Source: a virus (lineage: Duplodnaviria; Heunggongvirae; Uroviricota; Caudoviricetes). From it: 9,044 bases of DNA. Location: the IMG/VR virus record IMGVR_UViG_2648501110_000020, one strand, 5' to 3'. Each line of letters starts with the position of its first letter. Within the stretch, counting starts at the first letter, position 1. This document shows, in pieces, positions 1 through 7,015 of this stretch. The notes under the pieces are model-generated. The model saw only the letters and a program-made list of their open reading frames with translations, made no database searches and had not been told where the DNA came from. The position numbers and the translations under genes were made by a program.

Positions 1-2
1 GT

Positions 3-89
3 TGGGTAGTCATGTGGGATGGCTGGTTCAGACTTCAGGATATGGTTGAGGGTTACCTGGTGATGAAGTCTCTTGATCAGGAGATCTGA
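3..89 (+). mobile_element. 3' end of an IS50-family (IS4 family) transposase gene, partial; the 5' part lies outside the window
   Basis: Frame 3 is open from the window edge to TGA at 87-89 and translates WVVMWDGWFRLQDMVEGYLVMKSLDQEI. This aligns with my recollection of the Tn5 transposase C-terminus (...WEGWEALQSKLDGFLAAKDLMAQGIKI) at roughly half the positions. The stop codon lies inside the terminal repeat, as in IS50. Confidence 0.55.
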
Positions 90-100
90 TCAAGAGACAG
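82..100 (-). mobile_element. 19-bp terminal inverted repeat of an IS50-type element (Tn5 inside-end sequence); element terminus at position 100
   Basis: The reverse complement of 82-100 is CTGTCTCTTGATCAGATCT, which matches 19/19 the Tn5 inside end as I remember it, including its two GATC Dam sites. It overlaps the stop codon of the upstream transposase-like frame. Confidence 0.65.
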
Positions 101-516
101 GTGTAGATCAGGGGGATGAGCAATTAACACCAGAAGAGCGAAAATCCCGAAAAGACGCTCTTGCGAATGCCTTCCCGGCTATTAACTTTGACAATGGACG
201 TTCCGATTCACCTGATTTTTGTGAATTATGGCCAATACATAGCGACCTGAACAAAACTCGCCTGAAAAATACTGTTCTGCCCTCTGGTTTACTGTTTGTA
301 GCACACAAATACGACCCAACAACGCCCTGGATTAATGCCCGTAAGATGGCAGAGAAATTTTCCAGCCCGTTACTAACAATAAATGGTGATGGGCATACAT
401 TAGCTCTCACCGGAGTTAATTTATGTGTAGATAAAGCAGTTGTACATTACCTGATCACTCCACAAAAAATAGAAAATATATACTGCCCAGGAAATTCTGA
501 AGCAGAAATACAATAA
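101..516 (+). pseudogene. 5'-truncated alpha/beta hydrolase gene (C-terminal catalytic region only); the ORF-track start at 73 is a TTG inside the IS end
   Basis: The translation contains ...LLFVAHKYDPTTPWINARKMAEKFSSPLLTINGDGHTLAL..., the arrangement of the catalytic Asp and His at the C-terminus of alpha/beta-hydrolase (TAP-like / S33-type) enzymes. There is no in-frame ATG near the 5' end, and the frame is closed by stops at 61-66. The coding sequence begins exactly at the IS terminus. Confidence 0.55.
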
Positions 517-2828: not shown

Positions 2829-3419
2829 ATGTCTCGAATTTATGCTTACTGTCGGGTATCAACTCTGGAACAGACAACCAAAAATCAACGTCGGGAAATC
2901 GAAAGTGCAGGTTTTAACATCAAATCTCAGCAAATAATTGAAGAACACATTAGCGGCTCAGCAGCAACCAGTGAGCGTCCTGGTTTTAACCAGTTGCTTG
3001 ATCGACTGAAAAGAGGTGATGCATTGATTGTCACAAAACTGGATCGCCTCGGTTGTAATCCAATGGATATCAGTAAAACGGTGGAACAACTGACCAAAGC
3101 AGGTATCAAAGTGCATTGCTTAGCATTGGGGGGCGTTGACCTGACCAGTCCACCTGGAAAAATGATGATGCAAGTAATTTCAGCAGTCGCTGAATTTGAG
3201 CGAGACCTTTTACTTGAGCGTACTCATTCAGGGATATTAAGAGCACGGGGCGCAGGAAAGCGATTTGGTCGCCCACCTGTGTTAAATGATGAACAAATAC
3301 AGAGGGTACTAGAGCAAATTAAGTCAGGTATAAATATAAGTGACATTGCCCAAGAATTCAAAACCTCGCGGCAAACCATTTTAAGAGCTAAAGCAAAAAA
3401 TCAGACACCTGATATATAA
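2829..3419 (+). CDS. Small serine recombinase of the resolvase/invertase family (196 aa), in the pin position convergent on tfa
   Basis: The N-terminal catalytic motif YCRVST (serine nucleophile) is present, with [30 protein letters not shown] and GRPPVL blocks in the order seen in Tn3 resolvase and Gin/Pin/Hin, plus a C-terminal helix-turn-helix region ([18 protein letters not shown]). It is clearly diverged from PinR/PinE/Gin (not MLIGYVRVSTNDQ...). Confidence 0.85.
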
Positions 3420-3516: not shown

Positions 3517-4091
3517 CTACGGTAGGGCTGGCCATTCAATATCCGGTGCAGTTGATGTATCAACACGGTTCAGCAACACCCGATACTTTTTCCAGGCTTC
3601 CAGCAACAAGGTTTCTTCCTCCGTTGCGATCTCCAGATCCACAGCATCCTGAAGCGGCGCAATATGCTCACTGGCTACCTGCATCAGGCTGTTTTTTGTT
3701 TCTTCCGCCTCCCGGATCCGGAACAGTTTTTCTGCTTCCGTATCCTTCACCCAGGCTGTGCCGTTCCACTTCTGATATCCCCTCCCGGCGATAACCAGGT
3801 AACATTTTCCGGTAACGGACCGAGTTCAGAAATAAATAACGCGTCGCCGGAAGCCACGTCATAAACCGTTTTACCCCGATGATCTTCAACGAGATGCCAC
3901 GATGCCTCATCACTGTTGAAAACAGCCACGAAGCCTGCCGGAATATCTGGCGGTGCAATATCGATACTGTTTGCTGGCAGACCTGTATGAGGCGGAATAT
4001 ATGCGTCACCTTCACCAATAAATTCATTAGTTCCTGCCAGCAGATTATAAATTTTTATGGTCCGTGGTTGTTCACTCATTCTGAATGCCAT
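3517..4091 (-). pseudogene. tfa: tfa (tail fiber assembly protein) interrupted by a frameshift near 3771-3785; ORF-track pieces 3747-4091 and 3517-3750
   Basis: The upstream piece ([41 protein letters not shown]...TWLSPGG) matches the lambda Tfa N-terminus. The downstream piece, in a different frame, continues ...[26 protein letters not shown]...[17 protein letters not shown]...[13 protein letters not shown]. The frame change occurs at GGGGATATCAG (minus-strand sense) just after a G4 run. The start ATG overlaps the stf stop as TAATG. Confidence 0.8.
3553..3673. repeat. Direct repeat copy B of tfa 3' coding sequence (partner 782-902)
   Basis: See copy A. Confidence 0.8.
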
Positions 4092-7006
4092 TATGCAAGC
4101 CTCACAATGTAGTTAAATGCGATGTTTTTGACAGTGTTTTCCGCGTTACCAGCAGCGTTAACGGTGATGGTGTGTCCATGTGAGCCAATCGCAACAGAGT
4201 GCGTATGAGCACCAATACCGACAGTATGTGCGTGAGCACCTGCAGATGCAGCTGTGCCGCTGACACTATGAGTGTGCGCTCCTGCAGCACTTGTATTCAC
4301 ACTGGCCGCAGACACTACCTTATGTACTGACCCATTTTGTGACCACTGGCTGACTGCTGATGCGCCTGTGACACTATGAGTATGGTTTCCGGCACTTGCG
4401 GCTGTACCGCTCACACTGTGCGTATGCGCCCCGGTGTTATTCGTGGATTTAGTGCCGTAATCAAACGACGATGTGGTTTTCGTCCCCAAATCCGTACTGG
4501 ATGCACTGGCGCTGTGGGTGTGCGATTTAATGCCGTCCTGTTCCTGAGACAATACGGCCCGACCACTGGCAGGTTTGCCCTTAATCGTCCAGCCACGCAT
4601 ATCAGGGATCACGCCTGACGGATAAGCGGTTGCAAGTTTCGGGTAAGCGGATTTGTCAAAAGTCTGCCCCTGCATCAGGGCATAACCAGACGGAACGGTA
4701 TCTGATGGCCACGGGATTGGTGCGCCAGGCGGATAAAACTGCTCTGATGGTGTATAGAGTGAATAAACTGTACCGTCCGTTAACCCTTCCGGCTTATTAG
4801 CAGAATATGCTGGTGACGTATGAATAGTCACGCTGGCATTACTGGTATAATCCCATTGAATATTTACACCAGTCGCATAATTTCCGATTGCAACGTAAAT
4901 ATCGTAAGTATCACCAGATGTATTGACCCAGGCAAAATTTGTAAACCCTGTCGATGTGCGCTGCCATAAAGCACCAGTAATCCCCTTCGGATTACCATTA
5001 CCTGCACGCAAAACAAGTTCAGATATACCTGCCTGTTGAGGTGACCCCACGTTAAATCCCGCGCCACCAATCAACGTAATTGAAACAACAGAACTCGCCT
5101 GTGGCATGGTTACCGTTGCTAATTTGAACCAACCAGCACCACCGCTGAATGACATTGTTGTTGAGTTAAGCGTACCAATATCTTTCGGCGTCAGTGTTAT
5201 ATCCGCTGAAAGCGCCTTACCATTCACCTTACGGGCAGAAGGTACCCGACCATTCGCATTATCATTAGCTGCTTTCACTGCTTTCGGTGTCGCGGCAAGC
5301 GTTTCAGATGCGCTGTTGGTTGCACTACTGAGCTGGACAATTCCTTTTTGTGCTGTCGTAGCGTCCTGAGCAGTATATTTCCCGTTAGCAAGGTCATAGG
5401 CTGCCTTTACCGACTTTGGCGTTGCCGCCAGCATTTCAGATGTGCTGTTGGTCGCGCTGCTGAGCTGAACTATCCCTTTCTGTGCTGTCGTTGCATCCTG
5501 TGCGGTGTATTTCCCGTTAGCCAGCTCATACGCGGCCTTAACGGCTTTTGGCGTTGCCGCCAGTGACTCGGAAGTGCTGTTAGTCGCACTGCTGAGCTGT
5601 ACTATCCCCTTTTTCGTCGTGCTCGCATCCTCAAGCGCCACGGCGGATGCAATATCCTCTGCCCGTTTTGCCGCTGTCTCGGCGCGCGTTGCCGCGGATT
5701 CCGCCGTACTTTTGCTCTGAGCTGCCGCCGTCGCACTGCCAGCTGCCTCTGTCGCCTTCGTGGATGCCGTCGTGGCGCTGCCCTTTGCTGCTGACGCCTG
5801 TCTGGTCGCCTCATCTTTTGAAGCAGACGCAGATGATGCCGATGACGCCGCCGAACTGGCGGACGATGCGGCAGCCGTTTTTGAGGATTCTGCGCTGGTT
5901 TCCGACGCTTTCGCGTTCGTCTCGGATGTCTTCGCTGCGGAAGCAGACCTCGCTGCTGCGCTGGCCTGTTCAGTGGCTTCGCCAGCCTTCGTTGTGGCTG
6001 TTGAAGCGGACGATGCGGCGCTTTCTGCCGATTTTCCGGCAGCGGTGGCACTGGCTGAGGCCTGCCCGGCACTTGTTGACGCGGCACTGGCAGACGACGC
6101 AGCCGCTGTTTTTGAGCCTGCCGCAGCTGAGGCGCTCTGTCCCGCTGCCGTCTCAGAAGACCTGGCGTTCGTCTCGGACGTTTTTGCCGCCTTCGCGGAA
6201 TTTGCTGCCGCCGTTGCCGAGGAAGCTGCGCTACTGGCGCTCGAGGATGCGTTCGTTTCTGATGATTTTGCCGCCTCTTTTGAAGCCGACGCATCCCGGG
6301 CTGAGGTGGCAGCTTCTGACGCTTTCGTGGTCGCGGTGGATGCAGAAGTGGCGGCTGATTGTTGTGACGCTGCAGCATTCGTTTCTGACGTTTTCGCGGC
6401 AGCGGCACTGGTAGCTGCCGCGCTTTTTGAGGACTCTGCAGCGGCAGCACTTTTTTCCGCTTCAGTGGCCTTTGTTGATGCCGTTCCTGCGCTGGAAGAC
6501 GCTGACTGAGCCGACGAAGCGGCCTGTCCGGCTGACGTGCTGGCTGCACGTGCTGAATCTGCAGCATCAGTCGCATGGGTTGCCGCCTCACGGGCAGATG
6601 TGCCGGCATCACTGGCTGACTTCTTCGCGGCTGCCGTGTTCTGTGCCACCACGGACGCGTTACGCGCCACCTCTTCCACCATCTGTTCAAAACGGCGCAG
6701 TGCCTCCGGACGGGCATCATCCTCCGTCATGGCACCGAGAAAATCATTCAGCGTACCGGGTTGAGAATCTTCATACACGGTGATGGTCCCGGCATGTGAC
6801 GGCGGGAAGCCCTCCACCAACAGAATAACGCTGTACTGCCCGTACTCAACGTCCATGCTGTAACGCCCGGCTTCATCCGGATTTTCTGAGGCCAGCGTGT
6901 TCACCACCACCGTGGTGCTGTTACGTTTTGCTTTCAGCTGGATTGTGCAGTTCTGTACCGGTTTTCCTGTGCCGTCTTTCAGTACACCTGAAATCTTTAC
7001 TGCCAT
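4091..7006 (-). CDS. stf: Side tail fiber protein Stf, 971 aa; the ORF-track start at 7012 is an upstream GTG
   Basis: The N-terminus [26 protein letters not shown]... is as in lambda Stf. GGGGTG precedes the ATG at 7006-7004. There is a long Ala/Ser/Thr-rich low-complexity region, three tandem ~44-aa phage-fiber repeats ([24 protein letters not shown]), and a C-terminal tip rich in HxH motifs (HTHS x4, HAH, HGH). Confidence 0.9.
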
Positions 7007-7015
7007 ATTCACCCC

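Follow-up and report, generated by a model that had tools for sequence, protein, structure and literature searches.

Tn5 generates a fixed 9-bp duplication at its target and shows a weak target consensus. The IS50 subgroup of the IS4 family is characterized by a single-ORF DDE transposase with a Y-(2)-R-(3)-E-(6)-K motif (PMC2266710) and by direct repeats of 8–9 bp (PMC2266710, Table 1). Several insertion sequences target palindromes or REP sequences (IS1397, ISKpn1, IS621, ISRm22), and for ISRm22, an IS4-family member, REP targeting has been described (PMC1525189). The literature that names ISEc13 mentions it in mobilome listings and goes no further than the listing.

Here we analyse a window of 9044 nucleotides, the whole stretch of DNA under study, which carries one end of ISEc13 at its left border. 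An exact look-up of the open reading frame at 73–516 identifies the window as the complete 9044-bp draft contig JHSP01000113.1 of the Escherichia coli assembly GCA_001266025.1. Because the window is the complete contig, its base 1 is an assembly break within a multi-copy repeat. The record holds no sequence leftward of base 1, and the far end of the contig falls in the prophage gpJ gene, likewise a repeat. We conclude, with a probability of about 0.93, that positions 1–100 are the right end of an ISEc13 copy that entered codon 357 of a hydrolase gene by simple insertion, with a 9-bp duplication and a null allele as the result. The features of the locus are as follows.

1–100, plus strand: 3'-terminal 100 bp of ISEc13 (IS4 family, IS50 subgroup), 100/100 against annotated E. 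coli loci and against the reference copy L002 2501–2600
3–89, plus strand: last 28 codons of the ISEc13 transposase and TGA stop (87–89), from translation; part of the Tn5-type dimerisation region
68–98, no strand: perfect 13-bp inverted repeat (arms 68–80 and 86–98, 5-nt spacer), made of the core of the right terminal repeat and an inward-facing copy
73–516, plus strand: chimeric open reading frame of 147 codons, with a TTG start within the IS and 9 IS-derived codons fused to the hydrolase tail
82–100, minus strand: right terminal inverted repeat (IRR) of ISEc13, 19/19 identical to the IS50/Tn5 inside end
101–109, no strand: right-hand copy of the target-site duplication GTGTAGATC; the left-hand copy lies on the partner contig (L065 2197–2205), followed by the ISEc13 left end (2206–2324)
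101–516, plus strand: 3' fragment of a 494-codon gene for a secreted Hip1/CaeA-like (TAP-type) hydrolase, from two thirds of codon 357 to the stop codon at 514–516
110–114, no strand: AGGGG, right target arm (RGRGR); its left counterpart, CCTCT, is found on the partner contig

The ISEc13 end in the window

The reverse complement of 82–100 is CTGTCTCTTGATCAGATCT. Even with 3 mismatches allowed, the window matches it nowhere else, and 200 dinucleotide-preserving shuffles yielded no match. The first-pass annotation had recognised the repeat as the Tn5/IS50 inside end, and a check against the Tn5 of NZ_CP027411 bears this out at 19/19 positions. The repeat holds two GATC (Dam) sites, at 83–86 and 88–91. 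The translation of 3–89, WVVMWDGWFRLQDMVEGYLVMKSLDQEI followed by the stop, agrees with the C-terminus of the ISEc13 transposase, and the TGA stop lies within the repeat, as in IS50. The perfect 13-bp inverted repeat overlaps this stop codon and contributes a third GATC site (75–78); the same arrangement is present in the 25-nt IRR strings of enterobacterial relatives.

The database search of 1–100 that had been proposed as a check returns ISEc13 at 100% identity in more than 1000 E. coli records. In total, 2761 records match the query, 2008 of them at a coverage of at least 80% and 1036 at 99% or more. For the E. coli loci that are 100% identical to 1–100, the PGAP annotation is 'IS4-like element ISEc13 family transposase', and enteropathogenic E. 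coli (EPEC) E2348/69 holds about 30 copies of ISEc13. A second end of the IS50 type (IE, OE) or of the ISEc13 type (IRL) was not found in the window at up to 3 mismatches. Judged by its identity at the nucleotide level, the element at 1–100 is ISEc13, a catalogued element that is common in E. coli.

Relation of ISEc13 to IS50 and Tn5

A full copy of ISEc13 (L002 1051–2600, from E2348/69) is 1550 bp long. Its left end (IRL), CTGTCTCTTATACACAAAT, agrees with the Tn5 outside end at 17/19 positions and includes the TTATACACA DnaA-box core; its right end and the Tn5 inside end agree at 19/19, both Dam GATC sites included. Both ends begin with CTGTCTCTT..., which gives the 5'-CT termini of the IS50 subgroup, and the duplication of 9 bp falls within the subgroup's 8–9 bp. 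The transposase of 457 aa (L002 1216–2589) matches Tn5 transposase structures in the PDB with E=7e-83. It passes the Pfam cut-offs for Tnp_DNA_bind and DDE_Tnp_1 and reaches 24.1 bits against Dimer_Tnp_Tn5, under that family's cut-off of 26.7 bits. The YREK motif reads YERRWLIEEYHKAWK, at residue 316. Judged on this reference copy, the window itself holding the last 28 residues, the transposase has the properties of the IS50 subgroup. Identity to ISEc13 is complete on both sides of the insertion, with 100/100 for window 1–100 and 119/119 for the partner contig against L002. Over these stretches the window's copy shows no difference as an element from what ISfinder names ISEc13; its insertion site alone, inside this hydrolase gene, is absent from 5,426 complete E. 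coli genomes.

As a benchmark we used the genuine Tn5 of plasmid NZ_CP027411 (L003), so that the identity of the 19-mer rests on sequence. Two IS50 copies of 1534 bp each flank aph(3')-IIa/ble/aph(6)-Ic, and each has the outer end CTGACTCTTATACACAAGT and the inner end CTGTCTCTTGATCAGATCT. IS50 and ISEc13 are 52.5% identical at the DNA level over non-gap columns, and their transposases are 38.75% identical. When the two elements are aligned, no 19-bp window other than the inside end is identical at 19/19, no exact run is longer, and identity ends at position 20. With a protein identity of 38.75% and a DNA identity of about 52%, the part shared exactly with IS50 is the 19-bp inside end only. The earlier view of a natural IS50 relative, distinct from Tn5, is thereby upheld, the relative being ISEc13 with a transposase 39% identical to that of Tn5.

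ISEc13 resembles IS50/Tn5 further in the position of the transposase stop codon within the right repeat, in the same Pfam domains, in the YREK motif and in the 9-bp duplication of the window's copy. In contrast to IS50, ISEc13 is 1550 bp rather than 1534 bp long with a longer leader, its duplication varies from 8 to 10 bp among copies, its target flanks are strongly constrained (YCYCY...RGRGR), and the copy in the window belongs to no composite transposon.

Two side observations concern sequences used in this comparison. The first 16 bases of the ISEc13 IRL (L002 1051–1069) equal the engineered Tn5 'mosaic end'/Nextera adaptor CTGTCTCTTATACACATCT, and some relatives' left ends (L089/L090) match the mosaic end at 18/19 positions with CTGTCTCTTATACACATTT. 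Given this likeness, adaptor trimmers could cut real IS junction reads. In the NZ_CP027411 transposon, the two IS50 copies (L003 3514–5047 and 7800–9333) do not differ from each other, and the IS50L-type ochre codon (...GALW, then stop) is present in each; therefore no full-length transposase gene is present in the record as sequenced. The 12 bases flanking this transposon show no 9-bp duplication.

The interrupted hydrolase gene and the second junction

From position 101 the window is 100% identical to the 3' part of a 494-codon alpha/beta-hydrolase gene that is intact in many E. coli genomes, where it has ompT on one side and, on the other, a lambdoid prophage with its tail-fibre end. Window position 101 corresponds to position 6001 of the intact reference L001, and the insertion lies in codon 357. 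The intact protein of 494 aa has a signal peptide and matches Abhydrolase_1 with 115.9 bits and Abhydrolase_4 (TAP-like) with 58.9 bits, above the gathering score. Its residues 21–475 align with Mycobacterium tuberculosis Hip1/carboxylesterase A (Rv2224c; PDB 7sfm, 5ugq) with E=8e-52. The intact E. coli protein shares with Hip1/CaeA the GxSxG-type nucleophile motif, the conserved Asp and His and the domains Abhydrolase_1 and Abhydrolase_4. It differs in that its gene is found at a prophage border and encodes a predicted hydrolase, of which the last 138 codons remain in the window.

The insertion falls downstream of the nucleophile motif AYSYG (Ser202), which the window does not contain. The equivalents of Asp428 (313–315) and His455 (394–396) are kept in the window downstream of the insertion, and the fragment (100–513) still scores 61.5 bits for Abhydrolase_4. 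The proposal that the insertion split a hydrolase gene stands, as the gene is interrupted here and intact elsewhere. Its description of the remainder as the catalytic portion needs a correction, since the window encodes Asp428 and His455 without Ser202 and the full Ser-Asp-His triad is not present in one polypeptide. The open reading frame 73–516, which gene callers report and which lacks the nucleophile and the signal peptide, is very probably non-functional as a gene. Since the insertion separates the residues of the triad and leaves the 3' fragment without a signal peptide, we infer that the hydrolase is a null allele.

For the other junction, we predicted proteins that run from the hydrolase 5' part into the ISEc13 left end, assuming a duplication of 0, 7, 8, 9, 10 or 11 bp, and looked them up by exact sequence. 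The prediction for 9 bp (hydrolase 1–359 followed by PVSYTQIPTRGFVMSVSLL) is present exactly as CTZ98957.1, 'putative protease [Escherichia coli]', on two contigs. The chimeras predicted for 0, 7, 8, 10 and 11 bp are absent from the protein collection. The partner contig CYGG01000203.1 (2324 bp, GCA_001284325.1) carries ompT and then the hydrolase, up to ...cctctGTGTAGATC, which directly abuts the ISEc13 left end with the IRL CTGTCTCTTATACACAAAT; from the junction on, the contig reads CTGTCTCTTATACACAAATCCCC..., and its final 119 bases are the ISEc13 left end at 119/119. The host part of this contig stops at L001 6009 and the window starts at L001 6001, an overlap of 9 bp. On the window side the junction reads ...AAGAGACAG followed by GTGTAGATCaggggg, with ISEc13 oriented as the hydrolase. 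The duplication of GTGTAGATC and the hydrolase 5' half beyond it, both predicted from the window, are thus found, on a contig of another assembly accession. Read together at the sequence level, partner contig and window are a simple insertion with the 9-bp duplication GTGTAGATC, a length within the range of 8–10 bp of other ISEc13 copies. The two junctions come from different accessions (GCA_001284325.1 for CYGG01000203.1, GCA_001266025.1 for the window), and we infer that both sit in one genome. An exact search for the IS/hydrolase junction gave 0 matches in 5,426 complete E. coli genomes, GTDB species representatives and JGI metagenome contigs, so no closed genome displays the whole insertion. 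Among the relatives in metagenome and viral contigs, 0 have the window's junction.

With the element identified, the intact allele seen elsewhere and both junctions read, the course of events can be proposed as follows. ISEc13 transposed into codon 357 of the 494-codon gene for the secreted Hip1/CaeA-like hydrolase. By homology with Tn5, this would proceed by DDE cut-and-paste, with attack of the 3'-OH ends on the two target strands 9 bp apart. In the process GTGTAGATC was duplicated, and the signal peptide and Ser202 were parted from Asp428 and His455. The site, CCTCT-N9-AGGGG, matches the ISEc13 target consensus well. The window ends 100 bp into the IS solely through the break of the short-read assembly at the repeat; the insertion accounts for the position of the contig's end.

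The host locus and alternative explanations

The segment 101–9044 is collinear with IS-free E. coli chromosomes at 99.8–99.9% identity (n=173 complete genomes). Examples are O103:H2 12009, O111:H2 12A and FDAARGOS_1059, each without an IS at the window's insertion point. In the IS-free chromosomes this block extends to the left into the intact hydrolase, ompT and envY. The order in 12009 is nfrA, ybcH, envY, ompT, the alpha/beta hydrolase (494 aa, WP_001226378.1), a tail-fibre-assembly remnant, a methyltransferase, ynaM, ydfK, a Pin-like recombinase, tfa, the tail fibre, lom and gpJ. The segment 101–9044 belongs to a resident lambdoid prophage, whose tail-fibre end it forms beside ompT, and not to transposon cargo.

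The first-pass annotation had taken the IS end for the left boundary of a cargo region, and such a reading, in which the end belongs to a composite transposon or to IS-captured cargo that carries the downstream genes, would fit the accessory genes adjoining it (methyltransferase, Pin-like recombinase, tail-fibre genes). The same genes stand in the same order and without IS in the 173 complete genomes, however, and a second ISEc13 or IS50 end is missing from the window, so that a composite transposon is rejected for this segment. The partner junction, moreover, is a simple 9-bp duplication. We regard the cargo reading as extremely unlikely, and the boundary claim is withdrawn in favour of resident prophage DNA that is collinear in IS-free chromosomes. 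An IS-mediated rearrangement, in which recombination between two ISEc13 copies deletes or inverts DNA, or a chimeric assembly comes into view because the window by itself displays a single junction, and relatives with unmatched flanks do exist (the swapped pair L026/L038 described below, and 11/32 unique sites without direct repeat). Against this, the exact complementary junction with its 9-bp duplication occurs in public E. coli assemblies, and the 9-bp overlap between L001 6001 and 6009 is what a simple insertion predicts. A rearrangement or chimera is very unlikely here.

Tn5/IS50 itself, a laboratory mini-Tn5 or a Tn5-derived library adaptor at the contig end comes into view because the Tn5 inside end is matched at 19/19 right at the end of a contig, and because the left end of ISEc13 equals the Nextera mosaic end CTGTCTCTTATACACATCT over its first 16 bases. 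The repeat in the window is of the inside-end type, however, whereas kits use the mosaic end. The 81 bases upstream of it code for the C-terminus of ISEc13 and not for that of Tn5; the elements are 52% (DNA) and 39% (protein) identical, positions 1–100 are 100% ISEc13, and the partner contig runs 119 bp into ISEc13. With window 1–81 being ISEc13 coding sequence, an origin from Tn5, mini-Tn5 or adaptor is refuted, and the probability that we would assign to it is negligible. What we retain is an ordinary insertion of a known IS.

Further observations concern the prophage segment itself. Two single bases of O103:H2 12009 are missing from the window, one near 1851, which is intergenic, and one near 3777; the base near 1851 is likewise missing compared with FDAARGOS_1059. 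The deletion at about 3777 divides the tail-fibre-assembly gene (3517–4091, minus strand) into ORFs of 77 and 114 codons. FDAARGOS_1059 annotates the same gene as frameshifted, and therefore prophage decay is indicated. A Pin/Gin-type serine recombinase (Resolvase and HTH_7; 2829–3419) adjoins the tail-fibre and tail-fibre-assembly genes (3517–7012, minus strand), with a tfa remnant on the opposite side (700–1005). From the order of the genes, this arrangement appears to be the layout of an invertible host-range segment.

Conservation of the ends across the clade

The identity of the inside end alongside a diverged transposase had been called unexpected. The contrast is real, with the inside end as the longest exact run in an alignment of 52% identity, but it is the norm for the clade, as seen from 53 relatives of ISEc13 collected from GTDB genomes. 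Elements of Alishewanella, Alteromonas and Colwellia, whose transposases are about 49–50% identical to that of ISEc13, have a left end identical to the ISEc13 left end at 19/19, and their right end is CTGTCTCTTGATCACAAGT, which retains CTGTCTCTTGATCA. Among the enterobacterial relatives (70–99% identity), all recovered right ends equal the Tn5 inside end at 19/19 positions. The CTGTCTCTT core persists, with at most 2 substitutions, down to relatives at 40–45% identity. The published consensus for the ends of the IS50 subgroup, CW------Y---CA-A--W- (PMC2266710), is far looser because its members include more distant ones. Near-identical ends are, as far as the aligned elements tell, a property of the whole clade, kept even by relatives whose transposases are just 40–50% identical. 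Coding constraint is ruled out as the cause, since the repeat overlaps two codons and the stop only. By analogy with Tn5, the ends are likely conserved as transposase binding sites and as host-factor signals, with the Dam GATC sites in the inside end and the DnaA box TTATACACA in the outside end; both the GATC sites and the DnaA box are kept in the ends of ISEc13.

Among the relatives, two Alishewanella jeotgali loci, L026 and L038, have exchanged flanks: the sequence to the left of one copy matches that to the right of the other, which indicates an inversion or another rearrangement via recombination between IS copies.

Target choice of the ISEc13 group

To describe the target, we pooled copies from E. 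coli, metagenomes and viral contigs, which gave 17 unique enterobacterial ISEc13-group sites with a direct repeat (L002, L005, L007, L010, L066–L152, and window 101–114 with L065 2192–2205). With positions counted from the duplication, C occupies -4 and -2, and G occupies +2 and +4, at every one of the 17 sites. The left five bases are 100% pyrimidine and the right five are 98% purine. The duplication is 8 bp long at seven sites, 9 bp at eight and 10 bp at two, and the resulting consensus is YCYCY-N8-10-RGRGR. The site in the window, cctct GTGTAGATC agggg, agrees with the consensus from the 16 other unique sites. It is also the sole match to CCYCT-N8/9-AGRGG in the 13-kb intact reference, compared with a mean of 0.078 in shuffled sequences. 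The hydrolase was hit because the gene happens to hold a preferred ISEc13 target.

A second set of 21 unique sites combines four E. coli ISEc13 copies (L002, L005, L007, L010) with 17 copies of relatives from Alishewanella, Alteromonas, Colwellia and others (L020–L054), most with transposases of about 40–50% identity. A perfect palindrome (stem of at least 6 bp) underlies the duplication at 17/21 of these sites, compared with 1.1% of control positions. For stems of at least 5 bp the numbers are 17/21 and 4.1% (binomial p ~1e-20). All but two of the 17 palindrome-borne duplications are centred exactly on the dyad, and the length of the duplication and the loop share parity. These palindromes are GC-rich, and many resemble intrinsic terminators (A-run, hairpin, T-run). 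By the perfect-stem test, the site in the window made a poor palindrome with a stem of 3, a view that was revised after the flank consensus had been derived. A direct repeat is missing at 11 of 32 unique sites.

ISEc13 and its relatives are similar to the palindrome- and REP-targeting insertion sequences IS1397, ISKpn1, IS621 and ISRm22 in that their insertions fall at the centre of palindromes, which are often terminator-like. In contrast to those elements, the targets of the ISEc13 clade are diverse rather than drawn from one REP family and have just short flank motifs in common, and the length of the duplication varies with the spacing of the arms. In the literature we found no published account of the flank rule or of palindrome targeting specific to ISEc13; ISfinder or other literature may hold one. 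We suggest tentatively, and would not yet wager on it, that ISEc13 and its relatives could be a Tn5-like clade whose target rule is unusually strict and two-fold symmetric and whose duplication length ranges from 8 to 10 bp. If true, each transposase protomer would read its own target flank and the stagger of strand transfer would be flexible, unlike the fixed 9 bp of Tn5.

Conclusion

The earlier observation of an inside end at the left of the window is confirmed and its interpretation is partly supported. The locus records a strain-specific hit by a catalogued IS that knocks out an accessory hydrolase at a prophage border, and it matters little in itself. For annotation, the open reading frame 73–516 is a chimera of IS and hydrolase and is best annotated as a pseudogene fragment. 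Given the identical inside end, one may ask whether the transposases of Tn5 and ISEc13 could use each other's ends and whether Dam methylation, which depresses transposition at the IS50 inside end, controls both. The sole part that is maybe worth more work is the target rule of the ISEc13 clade together with its variable duplication length, and the observation on target choice could serve the engineering of the site preference of Tn5-type transposases.
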